Of a stretch of 64,000 nt of DNA, positions 27,287 to 51,367 are shown one piece after another (positions within the stretch are counted from its first letter, which is position 1; the number at the start of each line of letters is the position of its first letter). The position numbers and the translations under genes are program-made. The stretch is from the NCBI GenBank assembly GCA_050298595.1, contig JBNKUM010000067.1:2976-66975 (forward strand), read 5' to 3'. This DNA comes from Gammaproteobacteria bacterium (GTDB lineage Bacteria; Pseudomonadota; Gammaproteobacteria; GCA-001735895). Under the pieces are notes generated by a model. The model saw nothing but the letters and a program-made list of their open reading frames with translations. It had not been told where the DNA came from and did no database searches.

Positions 27287-30100
27287 TTAGTCTTTCAATG
27301 CTTTTAATATGGTCGTGTAGTCAAAGTTCCTGGCGAGCTGAGTCAGTTTGCTCTGTAATTCCTGGTCGTGCATCGAAACCTGCTGGATGACCGCCTCAAT
27401 GCGCTTGGACTCCAGGCTTTCTAGCACTTCAACGAACTCATTGCGCAGTGCTTCAGGCAGGCTATTCAACATCTGCGGCGTTAACGATATATCCGGTTCT
27501 ATTACGTCTGATTCCACAGCGCTCTCATAAAGATATTTCACGCCTAGCTGTCTTGAAAGGCAATCATAAATCTCGCCCGGTCGGTAGGGCTTGCGCACAT
27601 AGTCATCCATGCCACTAGCAAGCATTTCGTCCCGCTCTTCGTCAAACGCCGATGCAGTCACTGCAGCAATCTTAACCTCCTTGCCACCCGCTAATTCACG
27701 GATGCGCCGTGTCGCCTGTATGCCATCCATCACAGGCATGCGTCTATCCATCCAGATGAAATGTGGATGCCAGCTCTCAAACAGTTGTACCCCCTGCTCA
27801 CCGTTCTCGGCTATCCTGACCTTAAAACCAACAGATTCCATAAACCTGCTCAGTAGCAACTGATTATCACGCTGGTCTTCCACGATCAAAATACGATACT
27901 CGCCCTGGTCAGGGGCCAGCGCCATCACTTCGTCCTTGACGATCACCTGCTCTGCCATAGTAATATCTGCCTCCTGTGCTTCAATCAGGGGTAGGTCGAG
28001 CCTGAACAACGAGCCTTTACCTGGAGCACTTTCCAGCCAGATATTCCCGCCCATCATCTTTACAAATTGACGCGTAATCGTTAATCCCAGCCCGGTGCCT
28101 TTATTGGTACCCTGTTCGCCAAGTTGCACAAAAGGCTCGAAAACCTTTTGCTGGTCTTCAACCGCTATGCCAATGCCAGTGTCCTCTACATCGATCAGCA
28201 GATGAGAGATCTTATTATCCTTTGTGTCCAGGCGTAGCGTGACCCCCCCCTGCTCAGTATTTTTGATGGCGTTGCTTACCAGATTGATCAGAATCTGCCG
28301 TAGACGGGCCTGATCACCGACAATGAAACGTGGGAATAGAGAACTCTGGTCGATCCTTAATTGCAGGCCTTTGTTGAAAGCACGTTGCTGCATCATGTCA
28401 ATAATATCGCGCACCAGAGTACCCAGATCGAAGGCTGCATTTTCCAGATTCACCTGTCCCGCTTCGATCTTGGCCATATCTAGCACATCGTTAATCAGCG
28501 CCAGCAGATGTTTACCGCTACGACTAATAATTTCGATGTTCTCACGCAGGGATTCGTGTAGTAATGGATTATTGGTCATGAGTTCGGAGAACCCGAGGAT
28601 GGCGTTCAGAGGTGTGCGAAGTTCATGACTCATATTGGCCAGGAAGGCACTCTTGGCACGGCTGGCTGATTCAGCGTGTTCCTTGGCAGATAGCAACTGC
28701 CGATTTGAATCGGCTAACTCGTGAGTACGTTCATTCACCTTTGCCTCCAGGCCCCCAATTAATGCATGCAATTGACCTGCAATATTATTAAAGACGGATG
28801 TCAGCTCACTGATTTCATCTTCCGATTGGGGTGCTATTGGATGCTGTAGATAACGTCTCAGAGCAATACGCTGGCTATACTCTCTATCTACTTCTTCTTC
28901 CACCATCTCAGGTTTCTCCAGACCCATCGCAGATACTGCCCTGGTAAGCGCCCTGATCGGTGCAACGATTCTACTGATCAAGGAGTATCCGACGGCACCT
29001 CCCAACACAAGAATAAACACAGACGCGGCAATAATGCCCATGACGGTTTGGCGGATGGTGGCAATGGTGTTTTCCCTCGAAAGTGCCTGACTCAGAATAA
29101 GCGAGCTACCATCCTCTGCTATCTGCCAGGGCATAGAAGCCTGGTAGTAGGAATCCCCTCCTATATTTACGGTATGCAACTGGATAAGCGGGTCTCTTTG
29201 CGCAGACAAAACTTCAGTTGGTGTAGCCAGATCTACCAATTGAACACGCTGCTGCCCATCTGCGGAGATAATAGCCGGCAACAAACCCGTCTTCTCAGTA
29301 AGATTTTGCAGAAAGCCTTTGTCAAATACCTGAGTAAAAACAAACATACCGATCCTGACCGGTAAGTCCTCCTGCGTTAGCTGGGCTTGCAAAGCTGTCG
29401 TAGGCGTGGCTATGCTCAGGTTTTCGGCAATGACTTCGTTAAAAGACTGGCGAATCATACCTTGAATCGGCACTATCACGTGCAGCTCGATAACCTCTTG
29501 TGCAGGAAAATCGAAGCTTACCGTCACCCTGTCCACATTGGGAAAGTGGCGATGGATTGATCCTGGCAGTGGGATTTCTGACCAGTTACGCCAGTCATCC
29601 AGCGGTACCTTACCATTTCTGTACTGCTGAATCCCAACCACCCTAGTTTGACTATCGTGTCGCTTTATCATGCCCGCCGCCTGCGGCGTCACAAAATGTG
29701 ACAGGTCATCATCTAGATACACCGCCACACTGGACAGGCGTGCGGAGAGCAGGATTAACTGTAAGCGGTTTAAGGATGTGACCCGGTTAAGACTTACAGC
29801 GCTGTCGAGAGGAGCGCTAGGTTGATTTTTCAGCTTGAGTAGCTGGCTGTATAAAACAGCCATATCGCTAAGATTCTTTTCGTCACGCGCGGCTTGCATA
29901 GACACATTAGACATACGGTTGCGCATTTCCTGTAGATCGTTTTGAAATACGATCAACTCACGTGACAATCGGTTATAGGCTTCTGCCTGACTCTCGCGGT
30001 TAATCAGGTATGAAGCCAGCAGGGCATTAAGCAGCGTAACCGCTAACAGAAATGCCGCAAAGATAGCCAGTAGCTTGTATTTAATACTTACAATTTTCAC
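27287..30100 (-). CDS. Hybrid sensor histidine kinase / response regulator (copy 1) with a periplasmic sensor domain of about 320 aa
   Basis: Order: TM, periplasmic domain, TM, HAMP-like region, HisKA ([17 protein letters not shown]), HATPase (GTGLGLTI), REC (…MDRRMPVMDG…DDYVRKP), then a conserved tail of about 80 aa. About 55% identical to the kinase at 31766-34588. Confidence 0.85.
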   Translation of the reverse strand: MKIVSIKYKLLAIFAAFLLAVTLLNALLASYLINRESQAEAYNRLSRELIVFQNDLQEMRNRMSNVSMQAARDEKNLSDMAVLYSQLLKLKNQPSAPLDSAVSLNRVTSLNRLQLILLSARLSSVAVYLDDDLSHFVTPQAAGMIKRHDSQTRVVGIQQYRNGKVPLDDWRNWSEIPLPGSIHRHFPNVDRVTVSFDFPAQEVIELHVIVPIQGMIRQSFNEVIAENLSIATPTTALQAQLTQEDLPVRIGMFVFTQVFDKGFLQNLTEKTGLLPAIISADGQQRVQLVDLATPTEVLSAQRDPLIQLHTVNIGGDSYYQASMPWQIAEDGSSLILSQALSRENTIATIRQTVMGIIAASVFILVLGGAVGYSLISRIVAPIRALTRAVSAMGLEKPEMVEEEVDREYSQRIALRRYLQHPIAPQSEDEISELTSVFNNIAGQLHALIGGLEAKVNERTHELADSNRQLLSAKEHAESASRAKSAFLANMSHELRTPLNAILGFSELMTNNPLLHESLRENIEIISRSGKHLLALINDVLDMAKIEAGQVNLENAAFDLGTLVRDIIDMMQQRAFNKGLQLRIDQSSLFPRFIVGDQARLRQILINLVSNAIKNTEQGGVTLRLDTKDNKISHLLIDVEDTGIGIAVEDQQKVFEPFVQLGEQGTNKGTGLGLTITRQFVKMMGGNIWLESAPGKGSLFRLDLPLIEAQEADITMAEQVIVKDEVMALAPDQGEYRILIVEDQRDNQLLLSRFMESVGFKVRIAENGEQGVQLFESWHPHFIWMDRRMPVMDGIQATRRIRELAGGKEVKIAAVTASAFDEERDEMLASGMDDYVRKPYRPGEIYDCLSRQLGVKYLYESAVESDVIEPDISLTPQMLNSLPEALRNEFVEVLESLESKRIEAVIQQVSMHDQELQSKLTQLARNFDYTTILKALKD

Positions 30101-30184
30101 TATTAATTAGCATCAGTAATCGATGCACGTCCCTCAATCAATCAGCTGATAAAAAACAGGGGCTCGTTGCACATCCGTTCAACA

Positions 30185-31546
30185 CTACCGATGAGCATAA
30201 CCGTTATGATCTTGAATGTCCTGATCAATCTTTTCGGCTGCTTTACTGAGTTCGGCCTGCACATCAGCCCCTTTAATTATATTATCTACCGCCTCGGCGA
30301 AGACTTTGGTGATAGTTGCATAGGCTGGCGTGAGGGGACGAGGCACAGCCCAACCGGCTTCTATCTGTTGAACATACACGTTTAAAGGGCCACCTGGCTG
30401 GTAAAGCTCTGACCTGGCAAATGCCGATTTACGCGCCGGTACACCAGGGTGAATACCTGTCCAACGCACAATCTTGTCGGGTTGCAGAATATAGTCCAGG
30501 ATCGCCCAGCTCCCTTCAGGATTCTGGCAGGAGCTGGTGATACCAAAATTCCAGGCACCCAAACCAGTTTTGGGTCCATTGCCAAAGTCAGGCATGGGGA
30601 TGACAACCAAATCTTCGCCCAAAGCATCCGCATAGCTGCTATAGGTCCAGTGTCCTACCCAGGAAAGCGCCGCTTTGCCAGAAGCAAAATCCGTATCTCC
30701 CTGTGGGCTGGGGTTAGCCCAGCCCTTCTGGAACCAGCTCTGGAAATGCTGCATAGCTGTGACGGATTGAGGTCCATCCAGTACGCCTTTGGCAGACTGG
30801 TAGTTATTGCGATCAATCAAGTCACCGCCGAAAGACTGCAGGATGGGTGAAAAACCATAGGTAAAGAATTCACCGCGCCCATAGTTGATTTTCATATCCA
30901 GTGGATATTCAACGTCTGGGACGGCGGCCAGTTTTTCTAAAGCCGCTTCAAACTCAGCCAGATCCCATGGCTGCTGGATGGTAGGTATGCGCACGCCAGC
31001 TGCCTTTAGGTACTGGCGATTGCCATACATCGCCAGACCAGAGTCAACTATACCCAGTGTATACAGATTATTATTGTAGGTTCCCTGGGCAATGATAGAG
31101 GGCAGGAAATCGGCCTTCATCTGTGCTGACACAAAGCGGTCTATGGGTTGCAGGTAACCCAGCCAGGCCAGATATGAGACCATAGGTCCGTCAAAGAAAA
31201 GCAGGCAGGGCAGATCACCTGTGCGCCCGGCAGCCAGGATGCGGTCGGTGTAAATGCCTTCTGGCACCAGTGTCATCTCGGCTGAGTAGCGATCCTGCTC
31301 CTTGTTAAAGTCCTTCAGATTGAGTTCCATTGCTTTTAAGGCATTACCGGTACCGGCATTGAACCATACCGTCACGATTTGATTCCTGCTAACTGCGGCT
31401 GATGGAGGCTTAATCTTAGTGGGCGCTGGTTCAGGCGCTATACTGGCTGGTGGGCTTTTAGCAGTGGGTTCACTGGGTGGATCGCAAGCCGTTAGCACGG
31501 ATGCTAGCATGAATAAAATTATTAGATAACTAACCTTCTTGTGCAT
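30185..31546 (-). CDS. Periplasmic solute-binding protein, ABC family 1 (sugar-type), lipoprotein; partner of hybrid kinase copy 1
   Basis: Signal peptide with lipobox (LTAC); typical family-1 binding-protein length and motifs; about 65% identical to the copy at 34615-35982; directly upstream of, and co-directional with, the kinase. Confidence 0.75.
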   Translation of the reverse strand: MHKKVSYLIILFMLASVLTACDPPSEPTAKSPPASIAPEPAPTKIKPPSAAVSRNQIVTVWFNAGTGNALKAMELNLKDFNKEQDRYSAEMTLVPEGIYTDRILAAGRTGDLPCLLFFDGPMVSYLAWLGYLQPIDRFVSAQMKADFLPSIIAQGTYNNNLYTLGIVDSGLAMYGNRQYLKAAGVRIPTIQQPWDLAEFEAALEKLAAVPDVEYPLDMKINYGRGEFFTYGFSPILQSFGGDLIDRNNYQSAKGVLDGPQSVTAMQHFQSWFQKGWANPSPQGDTDFASGKAALSWVGHWTYSSYADALGEDLVVIPMPDFGNGPKTGLGAWNFGITSSCQNPEGSWAILDYILQPDKIVRWTGIHPGVPARKSAFARSELYQPGGPLNVYVQQIEAGWAVPRPLTPAYATITKVFAEAVDNIIKGADVQAELSKAAEKIDQDIQDHNGYAHR

Positions 31547-31765
31547 GACTTTTCACCTGTAAATGAATCGAATACCTTTTCAATCGTCGAGCTCTAATGA
31601 TCTGCCTGTCAGCAGCGGGATGCATGCGCTACTGCTTTTACTTTTATCTTCATACCCTTCAGACTCCTGAGTGTGAAAACCTATTTCTTACTTACGCGAT
31701 ATATAGCCCAGTTTGCACAGCGGTGTATGAATAATAAACGCCTCAGCCTTAGATCGACAGGCCAA

Positions 31766-34588
31766 TTATTCAGCCTTATTTAGTGCTCTTAATATAGCAG
31801 GGTAATCAAACTTACTGGCGAGCTGGCTGAGTGCCCTGTGTAACGCCGGGTCAATCGCCTCGGTGCGCTGGATCACTGCCTCAATGCTCTCGGGCTCCAG
31901 ACTTTCCAGTACCTCAATAAGCTCACTACGTAACACTTCTGGTAACTTTTCCAGCATCTGTGGCGTTAATACTACATGCTCATCTTGCGCCTTTGACGCA
32001 GTACTTCCGTACAGATATTTAACGCCCAGGTGTTTTGATATCACATCGTAGATTAGCGTCGCTCTGTATGGTTTGCTCACGTAATCGTCCATACCGATTT
32101 TTAGAATTTCATTGCGCTCCTCTTCAAAGGCCGAGGCGGTCACCGCGACAATCTTTACCTCTTTGCCGTCAGGCAATTCCCGGATACGTCGTGTTGCCTG
32201 CATGCCATCCATCACCGGCATATGTATATCCATCCAGATTAAATGTGGATGCCAGCTCTGAAACAGTTGTACACCCTGCTCACCATTTTCCGCCAGCTTT
32301 ATCTGGAAACCAACACTCTCCATAATTTCAGAAAGAAGGAGTTGATTGTCGCTCTGGTCTTCGACGATCAGGATACGGTATTCGGGTTGTCCCGGCGCAA
32401 GGCTAGTCACAACCCCCCTGCCAATCTGATCCGGTTTGCTGATATCCTGTTCCAGTGCTTCCTGCAAGATCAGTTCTATGCTGAATACCGTGCCTTTATC
32501 AATCTCGCTTTGCAGGCTGATACTGCCACCCATCATTTGCACGAACTGGCGCGTAATAGCCAGCCCGAGTCCCGTGCCCTTACTGCTATCCTTTTCACCC
32601 ACCTGTACGAAGGGGTCGAAGATAAGTTGTTGATCTTCAGGGCTGATACCTATGCCTGTATCCTCAACCTCGATCAGCAGATGAGATATTCTGTTTTGCT
32701 TTGTGGCCAGACGCAGAGTCACGCCCCCCTGCTGGGTAGCTCTGATGGCATTCCCTATCAGATTGATCAGAATCTGGCGCAGGCGCGACTCGTCGCCTAC
32801 GATGTAACGAGGGAACTGCGATGACTGGTCGACATGTAATTGCAGATCCTTATTTTCCGCGCGTATGCGCATCATATCGATAACATCTCGTAGCATACCG
32901 CCCAGATCAAAAGGCTCATTCTCCAGTTGTACCCGCCCGGCTTCTATCTTGGCCATTTCCAACACATCGTTGATCAGCGTTAGCAGGTATTCGCCACTAC
33001 GATTAATAATATTATTATTGTGCTGTAATCTTTCAGGCAGTGATGGATCCTGGTTCATCAGGTTGGAAAACCCGAGGATAGCGTTCAATGGGGTACGCAG
33101 TTCGTGGCTCATGTTGGCAAGGAAAGTACTCTTGGCTCGGTTGGCAACTTCGGCCTTTTCTTTGGCCGCCTGTAACTCCTGAGTGCGTTCGTCAACGCGT
33201 TGCTCCAGTGTTTCAAACGATTGCCGCAGTTGCCTGATCATGGCATTGAAGGCGGCGGCCAGTTGCCCTACTTCATCACTGGCTTTAAGGTCAATCTCGA
33301 TCAGCTTATCCGAGACTACAGGCGTATCTTTCGCTGTGGAACTATTAATCTGGGTGTTCAGACCGATGCGTGAAACGCTTTCCGTTAAGGCCACAATCGG
33401 TTTGACCAGACGATCTAACAGTATATAGCCCAATATCCAGACCACGATCAAAACCAGAGTAGCCAGGCCAATGAGTGCAGTAACGGTTTCTCGTATCTTC
33501 TGGGAGGCGCTCGCCCCTGATTGCGTAAACCCGATAATCAGCCGGGCTTTATCGCCATAGTGCAACAGGGTCAGGGCCTGGTAATAGGTTTCATCATCCA
33601 CGCTCAGAATCCTTTGTTGCATCGGTTGTTCAGGTGTCGCCTGACTCTGTTGCACCCATTGCACCAGATCTTCCGGCTTCATCTTCATTTTGACGATTTC
33701 GATTTGATGCATCCCATCTAACGAATACAGTGCTGGTAATAAACCACTTTTCTGCGCAATGCCTTGCAAAAATGCCTGGTCAAAGACCTTCTTGAATACA
33801 AAGGCACCAATGAGAACTGGTTTGATTTGGTCGGGATTTTTCTGGTTAAGCGCTTCCTGAGAAGCGATGACTGGATTGTTGACCACAAATCCTTCGGAGG
33901 AACCCAGGGTAATATTGTTTCGCATTACCGTTCGAGTAATTGCCTGTACCGGGACAACGATTTGCAATACCAACGCCTGCTGTTCAGAAAAATAAAAGGA
34001 AATCATGGGTTGCCTGGGTAATGTAATTTGAGATGAGATTAATGGAGGAGGGGTACCCAGCGGCCATATTGGCCAGTTATTGAACTTCATCTCTCCGCTC
34101 TGATCTGGATCAGTTTTAATCAGCCTCTGCTGCCCCTCCCGAAACACACTGATGCCAGCCTCAGTAGTAGTCACGAAATGACTTAACTCATTGCCCGTGT
34201 AAACGGCGGCGCTGGAAAATCCGGCCGTACGCAGAATAATCTGAAACCGATTCAGTGAAATGGTTTTATCGAACAGGAATCCGCGTTCATTCTTTGATGC
34301 TAGCTCAGGATAGTTCTTAAATTGCTGTGTTTTTGCATACAGCGTAGCCAGATCACTCAAGTTATCGATTCCGGTAACATTTTTTTCGGCAACCCTGCGC
34401 AGATCAGTTATCGTTTCCTGCAACTCGTACTGTAACAGGTCGGTCTGTTTGGTCAGGCTGCTAAACGCCTCTCGCTCGCTTTGTTGCGTGGTCAGGTAGA
34501 TGGCGAGTGCTACATTAAGCCCAGCGATAATGATCAGGGCCGTGCTAAACGCCAGCAGCAATTTCGTCTTGATACCCGATATGTTCAC
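31766..34588 (-). CDS. Hybrid sensor histidine kinase / response regulator (copy 2)
   Basis: Same architecture as 27287-30100 (His[19 protein letters not shown]; [13 protein letters not shown]…DDYVSKP; conserved tail). Confidence 0.85.
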
Positions 34589-34614
34589 TGTAACTTGTCA
34601 GCTTTTTCTGTGCA

Positions 34615-35982
34615 CTATTTGATCGGATAGCCGCCGTGATCTTTTATATCCTGGTCAATTTCCTGCGCCGCCCGGTGAAGTTCCGTTTTGACGTCTGCGC
34701 CATTAATAATATTCTCCATCGCTTCGGCAAAGACCTTTGAGATCACGGCATACGCTGGAGTGATCGGACGAGGAATGGCGCGCTCGCTTTCCAGTTGTTG
34801 TGCAATCAAATGTAAGGGGCCTGATTCACCATACAATTTTGACTGTGCCAGCACTGACTTCCGGGCCGGTGGGCCTCCGTTTTCGTTCGTCATACGTAAC
34901 ATTTCCTGCGGGGATAGCAGGAACTCGATGAATGTCCAGGCGCCAGTGGGATCCGGGCAATTGCTGGATATCCCCCAGCTCCAGCTACCCATCGCGGTTT
35001 TTGACCCATACCCAAAATCAGGCTGCGGTAACAACACCAGATCTTCCCCCAGAGCCTCGGCATGCGGTTTGTACATCCAGTGCCCCACCCAGGCGAGGGC
35101 CGCTTTTTTAGATCCGTAAAAATCGTCGTCCGTGGTCCTGGATTTGCCGGCCCAGCCCTTTTCAAACCAGCTCTGAAAGTGTTGCATGGCCTCAATCGAC
35201 TGGGGACTATCCAGCACGCCAGTTGCATGCTGGTAGCTGCTGCGATCAATCAGATCACCACCAAATGACTGGATGATGGGCGTAAAACACCATGAATAAA
35301 ACTCGCCAGGACCATAATTAATTTTCATATCAATTGCATACTCTACGTCAGGCAGGGCGGTCAGTTTTGCCAGCGCCTCTTCAAATTCGACCAGATTCCA
35401 CGGTTTTTCAAAGGTCGGTATGCGGATTCCAGCCGCGTTCAGATAGCGGCGATTGCCGTAGATTACCAGCCCTGAGTCAAACTGTCCGAGGCTATAGAGC
35501 TGTCCGTTGAAGGTTCCCTGGGTGAGAATCGAGGGCAATAAGTCGGCTTTTAGATCTGCTGAAACAAAACGGTCAATCGGCTGCAGATAGCCTGGCCATG
35601 CAAAGTTATAGAGGTATGGACCGTCAAACTCCAGGGCGCAGGCCAAACTACCAGACTGTGCGCTGCCAATGATCCGGTCAGCATAGATTTCCGGTGCAAT
35701 CGGCACATATTCTATGGTGTATTTATTTTGAGCCTGCTCAAAGGCTTCCACCGACTTAGCAAACACATCACCTTCTATGCTGCCAGGTAACATATGCGTC
35801 CAGACGCTGATCACTTTGCGCCTGTCTGTCTGGGGCGAGGGTGTTGAAGGTAGCGCTGTTGGTACTGAAGAGGGAGCGGCTAAAGCAGTGGATGTAGTCA
35901 AGTCCGAAATCCTGCAAAAAGTTAGTATCATGGCCACCAGAATCAGCTTATTTTGATAAAGTATTTTCTTTCTCATTTTCAC
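34615..35982 (-). CDS. Periplasmic solute-binding protein, ABC family 1 (copy 2), partner of hybrid kinase copy 2
   Basis: Signal peptide; paralog of 30185-31546; the 27-bp gap to the kinase start implies co-transcription. Confidence 0.75.
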   Translation of the reverse strand: MKMRKKILYQNKLILVAMILTFCRISDLTTSTALAAPSSVPTALPSTPSPQTDRRKVISVWTHMLPGSIEGDVFAKSVEAFEQAQNKYTIEYVPIAPEIYADRIIGSAQSGSLACALEFDGPYLYNFAWPGYLQPIDRFVSADLKADLLPSILTQGTFNGQLYSLGQFDSGLVIYGNRRYLNAAGIRIPTFEKPWNLVEFEEALAKLTALPDVEYAIDMKINYGPGEFYSWCFTPIIQSFGGDLIDRSSYQHATGVLDSPQSIEAMQHFQSWFEKGWAGKSRTTDDDFYGSKKAALAWVGHWMYKPHAEALGEDLVLLPQPDFGYGSKTAMGSWSWGISSNCPDPTGAWTFIEFLLSPQEMLRMTNENGGPPARKSVLAQSKLYGESGPLHLIAQQLESERAIPRPITPAYAVISKVFAEAMENIINGADVKTELHRAAQEIDQDIKDHGGYPIK

Positions 35983-41329: not shown

Positions 41330-43030
41330 CTGGCACAGCCTGTGTGAAAACCCTACTTAGGAGTATAATAAGTCATTCAAATAGACAGGTGAAACAATGA
41401 CTGGATTCATTGAAGGCGTAGCCAGAATACAAGCCACCTTATTTCCTGAATTACTTGACGATTACATCAGCGAAGAAAATCCCGTTCGCGTTATTGATGC
41501 CTTTGTCGATAATCTTGACCTCGATAAATTGGGTTTCAAAACCTACCCAGCAATAACCGGTCGTCCTGGTTACCACCCATCCAGCATGCTCAAGCTGTTT
41601 ATCTACGGTTACCTCAATCGTATCCAGTCTTCTCGTCGTTTAGAAAGGGAGTCGGGGCGTAATGTCGAGTTAATGTGGTTACTCGGTCGTCTATCTCCCG
41701 ACTTTAAAACCATAGCTGACTTTAGAAAAGATAATGGTAAAGGCATTAAAAATACCTGTCGAACCTTTATCGATTTGTGCAGACAATTAAATATGTTCAC
41801 CGATGCTATTGTCGCCATTGATGGCAGTAAATTTAAAGCAGTCAATAGTAAAGAAAATAATTACACACCCAAGAAACTACAATTTCATATAGACCGGGTT
41901 GAGAAGCATATCGAAGACTATTTACAACAACTCGATACCGCTGACAGGGCAGAAAAACCAGAGACTGATGGCAGGTCTATCGAAGATAAAATCACCTGGC
42001 TTAAGAAAAGACTCGCTGAGTTAAAGGCACTGGAAGGTGAGGTGGACAATCATCCTGACAAACAACTATCAACAACGGATCCGGACTCTCGATTAATGAA
42101 AACACAAGGGATGACCAGAGTGGTTTGTTACAATGTACAAACGGCCGTTGACCCCAAAAACCACCTGATTGTAGCCCATAAGGTAACGAATACACCTGAT
42201 CGTGGACAACTCTGCGGTGTAGGTAAACTGGCTCAAGACGCACTGGATACTAAAGGGATCACTGTTATTGCTGACAAAGGTTATTACAGTGGCCAGGATA
42301 TCAAAGATGCTCAGGATGCGGGTATGACGGTACTTGTACCCAAAGGTGATACTTCTGGCAGCGAGAAAAAAGGCATATTTAACCGATCCCGGTTCGAATA
42401 CGATGCAGAGCAAGATAGATATATTTGCCCCGCCAAACAAGAGTTATCCTATCGATTCACTTCGGTTGAGAAAGGACTATCGTTAAAGAAGTATTGGGCC
42501 TATGAACCCACTTGTAGGGCTTGCTCGATGAAACCACAATGCTCTAACAGTAATCAGGCTCGTAGAATCACTCGTTGGGTTCATCAGGATAGATTGGATC
42601 AAATGGACAAGTTACTCTCTTCTCAGCCAGAGTGCATGCTCATCAGAAAGCAAACCGTTGAACACCCTTATGGCACGATTAAATGCTGGATGGGATCAAC
42701 TCATTTTTTAACGAGACAATTCAAAAATGTCAGCACCGAAATGAGTCTGCATGTTTTGGCTTACAATTTAAAACGCATGATGTCGTTATTTGGACAGGCT
42801 GGATTAGTCGCCGCAATGACAAAGGTATAGGGATTAATGGCCCATAGTAATTGCATCTATAAAATACGTCGATATGACGTGTTTATTCTTTTGTGTAAGC
42901 CAGACAATTTTCTTATTCATAAAAAGGACTCTGAAAATAAGGAAGCTCAGGACTTAGCATAAGAAGTCTGAATAATGACTGGAGGACGAAATTATTAAGA
43001 TAATAGTTTTTACACAGCCTGGGCACATAC
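41330..43030 (+). mobile_element. IS1182-family insertion sequence (about 1.7 kb) with imperfect terminal inverted repeats
   Basis: Left end …ggcacagcctgtgtgaaaaccc (about 41328-41350) versus right end ttttacacagcctgggcaca (about 43008-43030; its reverse complement gtgcccaggctgtgtaaaa matches). A single transposase ORF lies inside. Confidence 0.6.
41397..42830 (+). CDS. IS1182-family DDE transposase
   Basis: 477 aa; the N-terminus (…LFPE.LDDYI…NPVRVIDAFVD.LDL…GF…) and the downstream DDE region are typical of IS1182/IS5-superfamily transposases. Confidence 0.8.
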   Translation: MTGFIEGVARIQATLFPELLDDYISEENPVRVIDAFVDNLDLDKLGFKTYPAITGRPGYHPSSMLKLFIYGYLNRIQSSRRLERESGRNVELMWLLGRLSPDFKTIADFRKDNGKGIKNTCRTFIDLCRQLNMFTDAIVAIDGSKFKAVNSKENNYTPKKLQFHIDRVEKHIEDYLQQLDTADRAEKPETDGRSIEDKITWLKKRLAELKALEGEVDNHPDKQLSTTDPDSRLMKTQGMTRVVCYNVQTAVDPKNHLIVAHKVTNTPDRGQLCGVGKLAQDALDTKGITVIADKGYYSGQDIKDAQDAGMTVLVPKGDTSGSEKKGIFNRSRFEYDAEQDRYICPAKQELSYRFTSVEKGLSLKKYWAYEPTCRACSMKPQCSNSNQARRITRWVHQDRLDQMDKLLSSQPECMLIRKQTVEHPYGTIKCWMGSTHFLTRQFKNVSTEMSLHVLAYNLKRMMSLFGQAGLVAAMTKV

Positions 43031-44794: not shown

Positions 44795-44935
44795 TTAAAA
44801 AAATTTACCACAGAGGGTTAAAAAAGGTGTTCTTAAAATTAAGGAACATTTCAAAATTCTGATAACTAGTGAATTTAAATGGCAATATTACGCTAATAGC
44901 CCTTCTCTGTGTCCTCTCTGTGGTTTTAAAAGCTT

Positions 44936-47001
44936 TTATAGGTTGTTCCGTAACCCTTCAATAGCCAATTTAAACTCATTAATGTCAGTAACGGGTTCAC
45001 GGCAGATCATGCCTTCGCAAAGATATGCTGATACCTGATCATTAATCGGTTTCTTATCATGGAATATGTCTGAAACTTCTGCCTGTTCGTCTACTGGAAA
45101 ACACAGAACATCAGGCAGGTAATATTGGTTAACTATCTGCTGCCATTCCTTTATTGCCTTGTGCTCACCACGAAGAATGACAATGGTAACAGAGTGAAGA
45201 TGGATATCGACCGCATTAAGCATAGAGGCATAGGCTATTGGTTGTTTGGCCAGCTGTAAAGAAGCTGCGCTTATGGTTTTTTCTGCGACATCAAGATAAC
45301 GGGGTTCAGTGCACAGATAACCCAGATAGTATAAAGCCTGAGCAGCAATCGCGTTGCCAGAAGGCATGGCATCATCATTAAATGTCTGGCTGCGCAGAAT
45401 CAGGTTTTCATGGTCATTGCGGGTGAAATAAAACCACCACTTTTCTTATTGGCAAAATCATCGATTAGGCTATCTGCCAGTTCAACACACCATGTAAATA
45501 TATCTTTATCCCATTTTGCCTGTAGCGCTTCGATACAGCTGAGCAACAAGTAGGCGTAATCATCCAGATAGGCATTCAGATGAGCCTTGCCATCTTTCCA
45601 GGTTGCAAGCAATCGGCCATCATGCCAGATATATTGGCGCACAAAGTCGAGTGCGCGGAATGCAGATTTTGCATAGTCAGGACGATTGAGTATACGTGCG
45701 GCAATCAACATGCCACGTATCATCAGCGCATTCCATGAGGTTAGTACCTTGTCATCGGTGCCAGGTTTGATACGCCGATTACGGTGTTCAAACAATTGAT
45801 GACGCGAGCTTTCCAGTGATTCAATTATTTCAACTTCTTTCAGGCCGAATTTTTGACTGAGTTGTGTGTAGGTACGGTAGATGTGCGGATACCAGCTACC
45901 CTCAAAATTCGCTGGGCGATCCAGTCCGTAGGTTTTTATAAAAATATCAAACTCAAATTCGGATAGCAGGTGCTTAACCTCCTCTACCTGCCAGATATAA
46001 TATTTACCTTCCTCACCTTCAGAATCTGCATCCTGTGAGGAATAGTAACCACCCGCAGGTGATTGCATTTCACGCATAAGCCAGTCAGCGGTTAGAGATA
46101 TTGCCCGTTCATAATAGTGGTTTCGTCGTAGTTGATTAGCCCAGACATATATCGGCATCAACTGTCCATTGTCATAAAGCATTTTTTCAAAGTGCGGTAT
46201 CATCCATTGATCGTCAGTAGAGTATCGACAGAAGCCGCCGCCAATCTGATCGAATAAACCACCCTGAGCCATTTTTTCTGCTGTAAATAAACCGGCCTCA
46301 AGTAAGTTAGCATAATCACTCCCATAGAGTGAAAACTGACGCAGACAGCGTTCAACAAAACAGGCATGTGGGAACTTGGGTCTAGGCGTAAAGCCGCCAT
46401 CATCCGCATCGAATTGCTCCAGCAATTGTTGGGACATTACTGCAAAAATATTATCGCTTAACTCGGCCTGATGCTTCGCTGGTTGATTGATATGTTGCAG
46501 TTGTTCAAGTAACGACCGGTTTTGAAATTCGATATCGTTGCGTTTTGTATTATAGGCATTGTGCACAGCCTGAATAATGGACCTGAAAGATTGCATGCCA
46601 TAACGTTCCTGCGGTGGAAAGTAGGTACCCGCAAGAAAAGGCGTCTGGTCATCTGGCATCAGGAACAGGGTTAGTGGCCAGCCACCGCCGCGATGGGTTA
46701 ATACTTGATGCGCCAGTTGATAGATCTTGTCCAGATCCGGGCGTTCTTCACGATCAACCTTGATATTGATGAAATACTCATTCATCAATGCTGCTGTTTG
46801 TTCATCTTCGAAAGATTCATGCGCCATCACATGGCACCAGTGGCAGGCGGAATAACCAATGGATAATAGTACAGGCTTATCCTGTTCTAGAGCTAGTCTT
46901 AAGGCTTCATCTCCCCAGGGGTGCCAGTCCACAGGATTGTGTTTGTGCTGTAAAAGATAAGGACTGGTTTCATCGGCCAGTCGGTTTTCATGCGTATTCA
47001 T
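44936..47001 (-). pseudogene. yyaL: Thioredoxin-domain protein YyaL (DUF255) disrupted by a single frameshift
   Basis: An N-terminal 533-aa ORF (thioredoxin CHWCHVM, six-hairpin glycosidase-like region) ends at …KKSGGFISP. The expected continuation ([31 protein letters not shown]…) reads in another frame. Consistent with loss of one base in the A/T homopolymer at 45431-45434. Confidence 0.7.
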
Positions 47002-47300
47002 GATTCAGTTTCATCCGCAGGGCCTGAACTGGAACCTTGCTGTGACTTTAAAGTTTCAGTGTGTCTTCCTGGAGGTGGCGTCCAGCCTCGTTCGCTACCA
47101 TCATGAAACTGATTGTGATCTTTTTCTAGCAGGCCGCTCAATGTGTCCATATGCTCTCTGCTATGGGAAAGAAAATCATGTTCTTTGAGACCTCTTCGTG
47201 TTCATCCTAAAGTTCATACAGATGTTCTATGCCATGATAGTCGTGTTCGTGAAACGCCATGACCATTTTCTCCACCTTAGAAGGGGTAATCCGAGAAGTT

Positions 47301-47633
47301 TTAAAGCCAGCGGTCCTGTTTCAACAAGGCTATCAAATAGTTCTCGAAACGCATAATCAACGCTGGCTTTTTTAGTAAATAAAGATGCCCTACATCAAAG
47401 GCTCTGGCGAGAACCTTTATGTGAGGGTGATGTCGTTTTACATGCTCAAGCAGTTCTACAGCACGATCTTTGTCATCTATGGCAACAATAAGCGATAATG
47501 TTTTACCTGGTTCTACTGAGATTACGTGATATAGAGCAATTATCGTTTTCCCTGGTTGATGAATTTTGATTCTATACCGACATACCAGCCTCAACAAAAA
47601 CAGTGCGGTTAAACCGCGCCACAGTTCGGACAT
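47301..47633 (-). pseudogene. Fragment of a CPA2 K+/H+ antiporter (KefB/KefC-type TrkA-N regulatory domain)
   Basis: …AIDDKDRAVELLEHVKRHHPHIKVLARAFDVGHLYLLKK… resembles the KefC RCK domain (HPHLQILARARD); the membrane domain is missing and flanking frames are broken. Confidence 0.5.
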
Positions 47634-47833
47634 ATAATCTATCCATCAGTTAAAAATTGGTAAATCATGCTAGTCCTGGGGACAAAAATCGATTTGAGAG
47701 CAGGATAAAGGTAAAAAAGTATTAATTTGCAGTAAAAATAGTAAATATTTCTACTTTTGTTGTTTATTAACAGGAGTATAAGGAACGAAAAACATAAAAC
47801 AAACATGGCAGGCATTTGGCTAGGGAGATCGCA

Positions 47834-48295
47834 ATGTTACGTTTAACAGGCTTTATTCTTCTATTTCTGACTTTCAACACATGTTTCGCAGACAGGTTGT
47901 GTGACACGGGATGCCGTCTGGATATAGACTTTCCAACAGGCGGGGATATACAGGCAGTTAATGATCTGACCATTGTTTTTGGGCAGTCGGGTCTGATAAA
48001 TACTGTTGCTACCACTGTAGGCTTCGTTAACAGGGATAGTCTGGTTTTACACGCTGGCGAACGACTTTTGTTTTTACCGGGTGGCAGCTTCAACCTTGGG
48101 GAAGGCGGAAATCTGGATTATTCACAGTTAATCATTCAAAGCGATGGCGAAATTCAGTTATCAGCGATAGGTGGAACAAGAACACTCTTCATATCGGCTG
48201 GTTCAAGTTTTATCTTATCAGGAAAGGCGAGAATTGAATTTGATGCATATAACCTCATTCTTGATGGAATCCTGACCCGTGTCGACAAAGAATAG
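47834..48295 (+). CDS. Secreted hypothetical protein
   Basis: Signal peptide (MLRLTGFILLFLTFNTCFA); Gly/Ser-rich beta-strand-like repeats; no family recognised. Confidence 0.45.
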   Translation: MLRLTGFILLFLTFNTCFADRLCDTGCRLDIDFPTGGDIQAVNDLTIVFGQSGLINTVATTVGFVNRDSLVLHAGERLLFLPGGSFNLGEGGNLDYSQLIIQSDGEIQLSAIGGTRTLFISAGSSFILSGKARIEFDAYNLILDGILTRVDKE

Positions 48296-48420
48296 AGGTC
48301 ACAATAAAGTAGTTACCGATATAGGATATGGAATGTAGTAATAAGTCGCAGCGCTTATCTTAAAAATTAGCCTTTATACATTTCGCGACAACACTTTTTA
48401 TACAGCAGGAGTTACCACTG

Positions 48421-48834
48421 ATGAATCTATTCGCGTATGGGACATTGATGGATGAGGCCATTATGCACAATGTCTGTGGTGAGCGGTTTCAATCACGAGT
48501 GGCTACTTTATCAGGCTATATGCGCAAAAAACTATGCGGTGAGGTTTATCCAGGGATTATTAGGCAGGCCGATTCAAAGGTTAAAGGGCGGGTATATCTT
48601 GATGTGACCGCGCAGGCTTTGCAGTATCTAGACCAGTTTGAAGGTTCGTTTTATCAAAGACAGCTCGTGTCAGCTGTTTTTGATGATGGCGCAAGCATGG
48701 AGGTTGAAACTTATGTGCTAACCAAAAGCTGTGCCAAACTGCTATCTGCGGAAGACTGGAGCCTGGAAGAGTTTCTAAACCGTGATAAGCCACTATTTGT
48801 GGATAAATATGGCGGTTATGAAAAGCTGGTTTAA
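48421..48834 (+). CDS. Gamma-glutamylcyclotransferase (AIG2/GGCT-like) family protein
   Basis: N-terminal LFAYGTLMDE motif and overall size typical of GGCT-like proteins. Confidence 0.7.
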   Translation: MNLFAYGTLMDEAIMHNVCGERFQSRVATLSGYMRKKLCGEVYPGIIRQADSKVKGRVYLDVTAQALQYLDQFEGSFYQRQLVSAVFDDGASMEVETYVLTKSCAKLLSAEDWSLEEFLNRDKPLFVDKYGGYEKLV

Positions 48835-49050
48835 ACACAAAAACAAGCACCTTTAGGCTGAAGGCTAAACTGACCAGGCTATTTATCTTAGTGTAATAAA
48901 GTCCTTACAAATAACTTGCTAAAATCAGAATTTATCCTAGAATTCGCGCCACTTTAATATCCATCGAGGATTTATGTTATTTCGCTAACCGTGCGCTAAT
49001 TCAAAACAGCGCCGGAACTATTTTTTCTGACGTTATTTTGAGGCTCTTTA

Positions 49051-49353
49051 GTGGAACACTTAACTTCTCAGGCACTGGATCGTGTGATCCAGATGTTGAT
49101 TCATCTCTCAATTCCTGCCATCGCCTACTCAGCTGATGATGAATTTGAGAATCATTTCATGACACACAATGGTATCGAATATGCTGGTATTCCTATCAGT
49201 GTGCCTGGCTTACCGGAACACAACTACGCGGCTTTCGATGCGTTTACTTGTACAGATGGCTGTCCAGAGACAGTGCTGCCCGTATTAAAACCACCTTTCT
49301 TCCCTCGGAGCATGGAAGTCACCGAGCAGCCACGTGGTATTATCCGAGATTAA
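49051..49353 (+). CDS. Short divergent class-1b (SpeH-like) S-adenosylmethionine-decarboxylase-related protein (GTG start)
   Basis: …[18 protein letters not shown] aligns to the SpeH/archaeal AdoMetDC motif WPE.GYAA.D.FTCG; lies immediately upstream of speE; only 100 aa; the canonical ESH autoprocessing site is not evident. Confidence 0.45.
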
Positions 49354-49370
49354 AATTGGAGAATAGACCT

Positions 49371-50225
49371 ATGAAAGAATTCGAAGAAACTTTGTACGAT
49401 GCACTGGCACAGACCTTTCGTATCGATAAGCTGTATTTTGAACATAAAACCGATCATCAGCATCTGATGATTTTCCACAATGCTTTTCTTGGTCGTGTGA
49501 TGACCCTGGACGGAGTAGTTCAAACTACGGAAAAAGATGAGTTTTTCTATCATGAAATGCTGACACATGTGCCTGTTCTGGCGCATGGTAATGTAAAAAA
49601 GGTATTGATTATTGGTGGTGGTGATGGCGGCATGCTGCGAGAAGTGTTAAAGCATGCATCTGTGGAGCAGGTTACTATGGTCGAGATTGATGACAAAGTA
49701 ATCGAGATGGCGAAACAGTATTTACCCAACCACTCAGCCGGTGCATTTGACGATGCGCGAGCTAACATTGTGATTGCCGACGGTATAGATTTTGTGCGGA
49801 ATACTGACGAATGTTTTGATGTCATTATCTCTGACAGCACCGACCCTGTGGGTCCTGGTGAAGTACTGTTTACGGATAATTTTTATTCCGCCTGTCAGAA
49901 AATCCTGAATTCAGGTGGCGTTATGGTGACACAAAATGGCGTTCCTTTTTTTCAAATGGATGAATTAATTAATACGCAGAAGCGTATGGGCGCACAATTT
50001 AAGGATCAAACCTTTTATAGCGCCGCAGTACCTACCTATTACGGTGGGATTATGACATTCGCCTGGGGTAGCGATGATGAAACACTGAGACAGCAGGATA
50101 TCAGTGTTCTTCAACAGCGGTTTATTGATAGCGGTATTAAAACCCGTTACTACACACCGCAAATTCATCAGGCATCTTTTGCTTTACCAGCATATGTACT
50201 GGATAAACTGGAGAAAAACAGTTAG
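49371..50225 (+). CDS. speE: Polyamine aminopropyltransferase (spermidine synthase)
   Basis: …[15 protein letters not shown]…[15 protein letters not shown]… are canonical SpeE motifs; strong RBS (ggagaa) before ATG 49371. The ORF-track start at 49248 is too long. Confidence 0.9.
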
Positions 50226-51367
50226 TGAACAAACGCTCTGTCAGATATGGTGCCAGTCCCGAAGAGAATGAATATTTCCAGGGGCTAGTGTCAAAGTATG
50301 GTTCTCCTTTATTGGTCATCAGTCGTAGTAAACTGATTCAACAGTATCAGAGTCTTAAAAACTACCTGCCCGGCGTGTCGCTATATTACGCCATCAAGGC
50401 TTTTCCTCACCCTGATGTGATTCGAATTCTGGCTGAACAGGGGTGTAATTTTGATGTGGCTTCAGAAGGCGAGATTGAGTTACTTAAGCCACAGCAAATC
50501 AGTGGTCGCAAAACTATCCATACTCATCCTATTAAGAAGGAAGCTCATATCAAGGCAGCATTGCGTGGCGGCTCAACCACTTTTGTAGTGGATAATATTG
50601 ATGAACTGAAAAAAATGATTCCATTTCGACAGCGAGTCGGTGTACTACTACGAGTTAGTTTTCGCAGTGATACCGCGAGTGTCGATCTATCGCGCAAGTT
50701 TGGTTGTAGCCCCGCCCAGGTCAGGGATCTGGTATTAGAGGCACAACAGTATGATATTCATATACGTGGACTGTCATTCCATGTAGGCTCACAGAGCCTG
50801 TCTTCAAATACGCATGTCGATGCGATTCAAAAATGTGCACAACTCATTGAAGAGATTAACGAAGATATTCCGAACCCGATGAATGTACTGGATATAGGCG
50901 GAGGTTTTCCAGTGGATTATGCTCAGGAAAATCCAGATCTGGAAGGATTCTTTAAGCCGATTCAACAGGCACTGTCTGAACTGCCAGATTATCTGGACAT
51001 TATCGCTGAGCCCGGACGTTATCTGGTGGCACCTGCAGTAACCGGCATCAGCAGTGTCACCGGTATCGCCAGGCGAGGGGAGTATATGTGGTATTACCTG
51101 GACGACGGTGTATATGGTTCTTATAGTGGGCAATTGTTTGACCATGTTCTGTACCCCCTGCAAATTCCGAATGATGCCGAACCACGCACTCTATCAATTC
51201 TATCTGGACCAACCTGCGACAGCATCGATATCATCTCCGAAGATATCATGCTGCCCGACCTGCGCGAAGGCGAACTGGTTATAGGCCACATGATGGGCGC
51301 CTATTCGGCAGCCACATCGACGCATTTTAATTCATTGTCGGGTGCCAGGATTATTCTTGAGGACTAG
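50225..51367 (+). CDS. Fold-type III PLP-dependent decarboxylase (ornithine/lysine decarboxylase family)
   Basis: PLP-lysine context (LYYAIKAFPHP), the EGEIELL and HVGSQ motifs, and a C-terminal beta-barrel region; third gene of the speE operon. Confidence 0.7.
   Translation: MNKRSVRYGASPEENEYFQGLVSKYGSPLLVISRSKLIQQYQSLKNYLPGVSLYYAIKAFPHPDVIRILAEQGCNFDVASEGEIELLKPQQISGRKTIHTHPIKKEAHIKAALRGGSTTFVVDNIDELKKMIPFRQRVGVLLRVSFRSDTASVDLSRKFGCSPAQVRDLVLEAQQYDIHIRGLSFHVGSQSLSSNTHVDAIQKCAQLIEEINEDIPNPMNVLDIGGGFPVDYAQENPDLEGFFKPIQQALSELPDYLDIIAEPGRYLVAPAVTGISSVTGIARRGEYMWYYLDDGVYGSYSGQLFDHVLYPLQIPNDAEPRTLSILSGPTCDSIDIISEDIMLPDLREGELVIGHMMGAYSAATSTHFNSLSGARIILED

Follow-up and report, generated by a model that had tools for sequence, protein, structure and literature searches.

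Directly upstream of an intact speE, the window (the whole stretch of 64,000 nucleotides analysed here) carries a GTG-initiated open reading frame of 100 codons that resembles class 1b AdoMetDC (SpeH), raising the question of what so short a frame is and whether its product could provide the operon with decarboxylated SAM (dcSAM). A sequence-only reading of this DNA had described a short SpeH-like ORF upstream of speE, starting with GTG, encoding 100 aa and lacking Glu-Ser, and had left it between a divergent self-processing variant, a non-catalytic functional homologue and a degenerate gene. That description agrees with the DNA in coordinates, motifs and sequence, and it is the degenerate gene that finds support, in a deletion, near-neutral omega values and a lineage-wise loss of invariant residues. 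We consider it very probable that the ORF is a relic of speH from the speH-speE-ODC operon of related gammaproteobacteria; it is thus a further example of a gene relic, a known kind of thing. The genes at the locus are arranged as follows.

48421 to 48834, plus strand: GGACT/AIG2-like gene, the syntenic upstream neighbour, outside the leader/promoter unit.
49051 to 49353, plus strand: probable speH relic (class 1b AdoMetDC proenzyme gene), GTG start, 100 codons, without 56 internal codons.
49371 to 50225, plus strand: speE (polyamine aminopropyltransferase, 284 aa), intact; NF002010 at 389.7 bits, TIGR00417 at 351.5 bits.
50225 to 51367, plus strand: PLP-dependent decarboxylase, 380 aa, alanine-racemase fold (PF02784 and PF00278), its start overlapping the speE stop.

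Because an in-frame TGA lies at 49039-49041, no 5' extension of the ORF is possible. A GAGG stands 7 nt upstream of its GTG start, and 17 nt separate its end from the start of speE, a gap of 15-17 nt being the same as in intact operons. A frameshifted N-terminal SpeH part was sought in the translated frames of 48835-49053, and all three frames proved stop-rich. An alternative frame or opposite-strand gene was rejected: the minus strand has no ORF of at least 40 aa within 49051-49349, and the sole overlapping plus-strand ORF at 49051-49353 is an upstream extension of the speE frame. An assembly artefact was also rejected, since the ORF was found identical on 15 contigs from several assemblies, with the same deletion in NCBI, JGI, ENA and Logan data; assemblies with the relic include GCA_050306155.1, GCA_050300895.1, GCA_050297635.1, GCA_050305375.1 and GCA_050302215.1.

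By sequence comparison, the AdoMetDC homology of the ORF is genuine but partial, covering its C-terminal 43-48 residues. PF02675 covers only aa 54-96 of the ORF (positions 64-107 of the 107 in the profile) and reaches 25.6 bits where the cut-off is 25; TIGR03330 reaches 28.7 bits where 75.65 are required, 47 bits short. A full-length match to the family profile of class 1b AdoMetDC is thus lacking. A phmmer match to a full-length 167-aa AdoMetDC (E=3e-11) likewise covers only aa 47-97. The SpeH-like C-terminal motif noticed earlier is present (aa 54-70, directly after IPISVPG at aa 47-53). Searched exhaustively with phmmer, 1.84 billion representatives contained only two proteins of similar length, P0002 (100 aa; identity 63%) and P0003 (104 aa; identity 55%); the remaining matches were 130-200-aa AdoMetDCs with L(A/S)ESH, aligned to query residues of about 34-98 only. 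Short forms number only 4 among 5.8 billion proteins, and the loci of P0002 and P0003 share the gene order of the window: GGACT, short ORF, speE, decarboxylase and TonB receptor.

The missing part of the gene is found in close relatives. In a scan of species-representative genomes, three gammaproteobacterial MAGs (L017, L018 and L022), whose SpeE is 87-89% identical to that of the window, carry at the same site upstream of speE an intact, GTG-initiated AdoMetDC of 156-157 aa with LAESH. The synteny GGACT - speH - speE - ODC - TonB receptor is identical in the window, in L011 and L012, which carry the short form, and in L017, L018 and L022, establishing orthology by position as for a gene relic or unitary pseudogene. 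In farther relatives, Ca. Thiodiazotropha (SpeE 75% identical) and Arenicella (66%), an AdoMetDC-coding region also lies directly upstream of speE, the gene of one Ca. Thiodiazotropha genome (L019) being an ATG-initiated ORF of 156 aa. A scan of metagenome contigs with SpeE reached a best identity of 64% and yielded no further close lineage, and the 90% clusters of three SpeE proteins were all singletons, so they gave no unbiased added sampling. On the far side of the GGACT gene the loci differ in content: cowN (PF20543) adjoins it in L011 (554-880) and L012 (2287-2577), and the window has at that site two ORFs that match no Pfam family (47301-47633, minus strand; 47816-48295, plus strand) within a region, 47000-48400, that contains long stretches with no ORF of at least 130 aa.

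The window ORF and the intact proteins share their N-terminus (MEHLTSE.LDRVIQMP) and their C-terminus (MEVTEHLRGVIRD), and the only gap between them in the alignment measures exactly 56 codons, or 168 nt. In the intact row, NGTEFAGTH is followed by the deleted block LILDLW...GISGVAVLAESH and then by ISVHTWPERDYAAFDVFMCG. At the DNA level the breakpoints fall between two ancestral His codons (GGT ACN CAY / ... TCN CAY / ATC AGT), and the junction codon is CCT, a change from His to Pro, in all four lineages that carry the deletion: the window, L011, L012 and L177, the last encoding a 94-aa relic (P0148) that was found with a relic profile. The deletion divides the ORF as follows.

49051 to 49194, plus strand: retained 5' part, encoding the N-terminal extension (aa 1-44) and the first 4 residues of strand beta1 (AGTH changed to AGIP).
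49192 to 49197, plus strand: deletion junction, codons 48-49 (CCT ATC), 168 nt gone.
49195 to 49350, plus strand: retained 3' part, homologous to the alpha-chain (T. maritima residues about 65-117), without the pyruvoyl-precursor Ser; in the window the His68 equivalent is Pro, Trp is changed to Leu and the Cys83 equivalent is present.

A neighbour-joining tree of the GGACT, SpeE and decarboxylase proteins sets {window, L011, L012} apart from {L017, L022, L018}, which fits one deletion event. Comparison with the intact family also revises the expected length of the enzyme. The 110-130 aa assumed beforehand for class 1b does not apply to this subfamily, whose members have 155-158 aa, made up of a 44-aa N-terminal extension and a core of about 112 aa; of 7982 intact-type homologues retrieved, the best 120 are all about 147-172 aa long. 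The extension (aa 1-44 of P0028; 4515-4646 in L017) is predicted by AF2 to be disordered, carries the conserved motif ME..(T/A)SEALD.VI.(L/M)P ... DHF and evolves under purifying selection where the gene is intact (omega 0.07-0.30).

Across 37 intact homologues, 60 residues are invariant, 27 of them in the deleted block and 24 in the retained core. LAES(103)H belongs to the invariant set and falls within the 56-codon gap, so that the alignment proposed as a check recovers no conserved Glu-Ser in the window ORF, which contains no Glu-Ser anywhere and thus has no serinolysis site of a class 1b AdoMetDC. This bears directly on whether the ORF could be a divergent, minimal self-processing enzyme in which another Ser, for instance that of ISV, forms the pyruvoyl group. 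A Ser is indeed present at aa 50, and the downstream PE..YAAFD.FTC motif is recognisable, but this Ser corresponds to Ser106 of the family, 3 residues downstream of the processing Ser103, and L012 has Cys there. Missing from the ORF are the preceding Glu, the His68 equivalent, three strands and a helix; the TIGR03330 equivalog cut-off is missed by the 47 bits given above, and evolution is neutral. With the Glu-Ser-His segment removed by a clean deletion relative to intact orthologues, we regard self-processing as refuted, its chance of being correct being negligible.

The structural comparison points the same way for the fold. The intact orthologue matches T. maritima AdoMetDC (1TLU) over residues 4-113, the full core, with E=6e-21; in alignments to 1TLU/1VR7, the deleted block corresponds to T. 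maritima residues of about 8-64, Glu62-Ser63 included, and residues 49-96 of the window ORF align with residues 65-113, the alpha-chain. An AF2 model of the intact orthologue P0028 (97% identical to the L017 protein; pLDDT 73) has strands at 37-39, 42-44, 46-54, 82-89, 92-95, 104-110, 115-122 and 143-151 and helices at 62-76 and 128-139, with residues 1-35 predicted to be disordered. Strand 46-54, helix 62-76 and strands 82-89 and 92-95 lie in or across the deletion; one helix, three strands and the cleavage loop are therefore lost with it, and by both comparisons the window ORF lacks a complete alpha-beta sandwich. The AF2 model of the relic itself has a pLDDT of 38 and no secondary structure; with only four sequences in the alignment, this counts for little by itself.

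The residues that survived the deletion have been eroded differently in each lineage. Of the 24 invariant positions of the retained core, 18 are kept in the window, 12 in L177, 11 in L011 and 6 in L012, with H108, W110, R113, M122, G124 and A126 gone in all four. At the position of His108 the window has Pro and the other relics have Tyr; Cys123 is present in the window and L012, replaced by Tyr in L011 and deleted in L177. In T. maritima, His68 and Cys83 are reportedly the catalytic residues of the alpha-chain, and the window ORF does not retain the catalytic His and Cys together, as a class 1b AdoMetDC does. Besides substitutions, there are lineage-specific disabling lesions, another mark of a gene relic: a 1-nt deletion in L012 frameshifts the last 20 or so codons, so that termination occurs 4 nt before the speE ATG, and an additional in-frame 18-nt deletion in L177 removes FTCTDGCPE, including the catalytic Cys. 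No premature stop was seen in the four lineages.

Omega, estimated by the Nei-Gojobori method with bootstrap confidence intervals (CIs) for six relic pairs and for intact pairs, is 0.53-0.98 among relics versus 0.03-0.09 among intact orthologues, and its CI includes 1 in five of the six relic pairs, the exception being window-L177 (CI 0.31-0.92). The values are 0.51-0.77 in the retained 5' part (intact genes, 0.07-0.30) and 0.7-1.3 in the retained 3' part (intact orthologues, about 0.01). In the C-terminal core, pN is 0.22-0.45 in relics and 0-0.008 in intact genes, at similar or higher pS. Differences between relics are spread evenly over the three codon positions (for example, [16,23,17] and [20,19,21]; chi-square p 0.17-0.95), in contrast to the third-position excess of intact genes ([19,11,59] and [11,6,64]; p 1e-10 to 1e-17). 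Purifying selection at the protein level has thus been lost, as in other gene relics.

This near-neutral drift weighs against a functional pseudoenzyme or small regulator made of the N-terminal extension and the alpha-chain-like half, such as a prozyme-like AdoMetDC partner or a regulator of SpeE. Such a role would account for the retention of an ORF with its own SD and start and for an omega below 1 in one pair, and it has precedents in the trypanosome prozyme and in the degraded SpeD2 domain of the V. vadensis fusion (PMC10407285). Set against these are the omega of 0.7-1.3 in the C-terminal core versus 0.01 in intact genes, the evenness of the codon-position changes, the loss of other invariant residues in each lineage, a C-terminus frameshifted in L012 and partly deleted in L177, and an AF2 model with no fold; known dead paralogues, moreover, retain a complete fold. 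The window ORF shows neither the conserved sequence nor the fold of a prozyme-like protein, and the 64-kb window holds no AdoMetDC partner for it. We therefore judge the functional, non-catalytic homologue improbable, given an omega of about 0.5-1, the frameshift and the further deletion.

We propose that the common ancestor of the four sampled lineages lost 168 nt in one in-frame event. Residues 49-104 of the 156-aa proenzyme went with them, comprising the greater part of strand beta1, helix alpha1, strands beta2 and beta3, and the serinolysis site Glu102-Ser103-His104. No pyruvoyl cofactor can form in the absence of Ser103, and half of the alpha-beta sandwich is missing; for both reasons the product cannot be an AdoMetDC. 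Since the deletion, the remnant has drifted under almost no protein-level constraint, with the promoter, leader, ribosome-binding site, speE and decarboxylase still conserved. Its frame may have remained open solely because ribosomes passing over it favour the expression of speE.

Among the four relic lineages, the frame is open in all despite at least 141 substitutions inferred by parsimony, and a stop hazard of about 0.029 per substitution gives this openness over the clade a naive probability of about 0.02. Nucleotide divergence between relics is 0.19-0.34, versus 0.33-0.56 at 4-fold sites in the GGACT, speE, ODC-like and TonB receptor genes, and the relic has one indel, compared with 50-87 gap columns in the ODC-TonB spacer. 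Together with the window-L177 CI, the open frame, the low divergence and the few indels suggest some residual constraint on the relic, and the ORF may therefore not be a fully inert pseudogene. The low divergence could reflect constraint on RNA or translation, or a recombination tract. The 4-fold divergence of speE is also below that of its neighbours in most comparisons.

One form that such constraint could take is a translated spacer: the protein would be useless, and frame and RBS would be kept for the expression of speE, through translational coupling or protection from Rho-dependent polarity, so that the sequence drifts freely and selection removes stops and early frameshifts. Such a reading would refine the relic explanation and is compatible with it. 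It would explain the absence of stops in four lineages (the naive probability of about 0.02), the conservation of the SD GAGG and the GTG start, the gap to speE of 15-17 nt as in intact operons, the L012 frameshift that still terminates 4 nt before the speE ATG, the in-frame nature of the L177 deletion, and far fewer indels than in the ODC-TonB spacer. Random-substitution simulations, however, leave the frame open in 19-24% of runs for each pair; furthermore, the relic lineages were recovered by protein searches, an ascertainment that favours open frames, and only four are known. We regard the translated spacer as possible but less likely than not.

Conservation is strong upstream of the relic. 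Together with roughly the first 30 codons of the ORF, the non-coding interval 48915-49050 shows about 95% identity between lineages in which the neighbouring genes approach saturation at silent sites. It contains the following elements.

48916 to 48943, plus strand: sigma-70-like promoter, TTGCTA-N16-TAGAAT, its hexamers kept in all relatives including Ca. Thiodiazotropha and its spacer variable.
48966 to 49026, plus strand: conserved leader, with SD, mini-uORF, hairpin and T-run.
48966 to 48970, plus strand: leader SD, GAGGA.
48974 to 48988, plus strand: 4-codon mini-uORF, ATG TTA TTT CGC TAA (ATGTTATTTCGCTAA).
48989 to 49015, plus strand: GC-rich hairpin of 8 bp, CCGTGCGCT/AGCGCCGG, abutting the uORF stop codon.
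49021 to 49026, plus strand: T-run.

The same leader precedes intact speH in L017, L018, L022 and Ca. Thiodiazotropha (L019, L020). In Ca. Thiodiazotropha the arrangement is kept, with uORFs MEHH* and MLHR* and one hairpin pair changed from U-A to C-G, and the length and sequence of the hairpin loop vary among relatives. RNAalifold on six close leader sequences found no compensatory pairs, the sequences being too similar; a covariance model of the leader matches only its own clade and L177, and an Rfam search of 48800-49450 at a permissive threshold returned nothing relevant. A heuristic scan found the same layout of SD, uORF of 3-4 codons and hairpin in front of speH in Arenicella, in one Oceanospirillales genome and in two MAGs of Pseudomonadales; loci with such an architecture include L021, L027, L030 and L031. 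In Arenicella and the Pseudomonadales MAGs, conservation extends to the -10 box and the CCGCGC that follows it. Among 29 other speH loci, mostly alphaproteobacterial, 28 have no leader candidate and one (L034) has only a start-stop 'M*'. The uORF peptide is variable (MLFR, MFFR, MLLR, MLHR, MEHH, MLIR, MYL). Within the gene itself, a perfect 7-bp hairpin (CTGGATC-GTGT-GATCCAG) spans 49075-49092, codons 9-14 of the relic, its stem being largely retained and its loop variable in relatives, those with intact speH included. Silent-site divergence is unusually low over roughly the first 90 nt of the gene, in relic and intact lineages alike.

Polyamine-responsive leader ORFs include the MAGDIS uORF of mammalian AdoMetDC, the tiny and small uORFs of plant AdoMetDC, and speFL and mdtU of E. 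coli. Like these, the leader described here carries a very short uORF upstream of polyamine biosynthesis genes, and in the window this uORF abuts a terminator-like hairpin; unlike them, its uORF has 3-4 codons, shares no sequence similarity with theirs and belongs to no Rfam family. A literature search by title found no description of a bacterial speH or speD leader of this architecture. Judging by its layout, the leader is possibly a ribosome-dependent attenuator which, if real, might sense polyamines or translation status. That an undescribed attenuator of mini-uORF and terminator hairpin governs speH-speE-ODC, with the relic kept as an open translated spacer for ribosome traffic into speE, is a conjunction that we regard as rather unlikely. 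The conserved leader is a candidate new cis-regulator of bacterial spermidine synthesis.

Downstream of the relic, selection is strong. Among relic lineages omega is 0.055-0.072 for speE, indicating strong purifying selection, and about 0.03 for the 380-aa decarboxylase. The top NCBIfam match of the latter is lysA, under its cut-off, and its Orn_Arg_deC_N and Orn_DAP_Arg_deC domains with the alanine-racemase fold are compatible with the ODC/LDC-type assignment proposed earlier for the third gene; it is probably an ornithine/lysine decarboxylase. Since the relic has no AdoMetDC function, the operon has no dcSAM source of its own, and the concern that its own spermidine supply is affected proves justified, the ORF being a degenerate gene. 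Because speE and the ODC-like gene remain under strong purifying selection, dcSAM must come from elsewhere, and we infer that it is made by an AdoMetDC encoded elsewhere in the genome or taken from outside the cell. Within the 64-kb window, the relic was the sole tblastn match to class 1b queries for a second AdoMetDC, and among the other large ORFs Pfam scans detected neither an AdoMetDC nor CASDH/CASDC. The homologues P0090, P0091 and P0103, found at NCBI only, lie in other MAGs of the same project, not in relic-bearing assemblies.

The constraint on speE and the decarboxylase long after the death of the linked speH (dS at least 0.5) thus predicts a second source of dcSAM, whether another speD/speH or uptake. 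Annotations should accordingly name the ORF a speH remnant rather than an AdoMetDC, and pathway reconstructions should credit no dcSAM synthesis to this operon. In a wider sense, the locus offers a natural example of an in-frame deletion pseudogene that lies inside an operon and is still open, which is relevant to the effect that translating upstream relics has on downstream genes.

Elsewhere in the window, a Thioredox_DsbH-family gene (44932-47005, minus strand) is split into ORFs of 533 aa and 143 aa by a 1-nt deletion near 45434; it is intact (688 aa) in the sister assemblies L001 and L003, the strains being 97.9% identical across the gene, and by this comparison it is a strain-level pseudogene. 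A DDE transposase gene (41397-42830, plus strand; DUF772/DDE_Tnp_1, 477 aa) is also present in L002 and L003 and absent at that site from L001 and L004, so that, from these alignments, the IS insertion is polymorphic among near-identical strains. At 27287-35982 (minus strand) lie two tandem pairs, in each of which a hybrid histidine kinase of about 940 aa comes after an extracellular solute-binding protein of 453-455 aa (SBP_bac_8/SBP_bac_1).

Among known AdoMetDC derivatives, the ancestor family of the window ORF is class 1b AdoMetDC/SpeH (T. maritima TM0655; 1TLU/1VR7/3IWB; PF02675; TIGR03330). Like class 1b speH, the relic lies directly upstream of speE, and it has the 44-aa N-terminal extension typical of the gammaproteobacterial and alphaproteobacterial subfamily of 155-158 aa. 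Unlike T. maritima AdoMetDC, it lacks the equivalents of residues 8-64, and its His68 equivalent is replaced; unlike class 1b AdoMetDC in general, it is free of protein-level purifying selection. The trypanosomatid AdoMetDC prozyme is reportedly full length, conserved and catalytically dead, activating the enzyme by heterodimerisation. The relic is likewise a catalytically dead relative of AdoMetDC, but it is neither full length nor conserved, and activation by heterodimerisation is unsupported for it. In the V. vadensis (Victivallis) SpeD1/degraded-SpeD2 fusion and the C-terminal half of eukaryotic class 2 AdoMetDC, the degraded SpeD domain has no self-cleavage site, yet it has a complete fold and remains part of an active enzyme (PMC10407285, Li et al. 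2023). The relic resembles these degraded domains in being derived from AdoMetDC, in having lost the processing Ser and in having no pyruvoyl group, and differs from them in that it stands alone, with half of the fold missing and its sequence in neutral drift.
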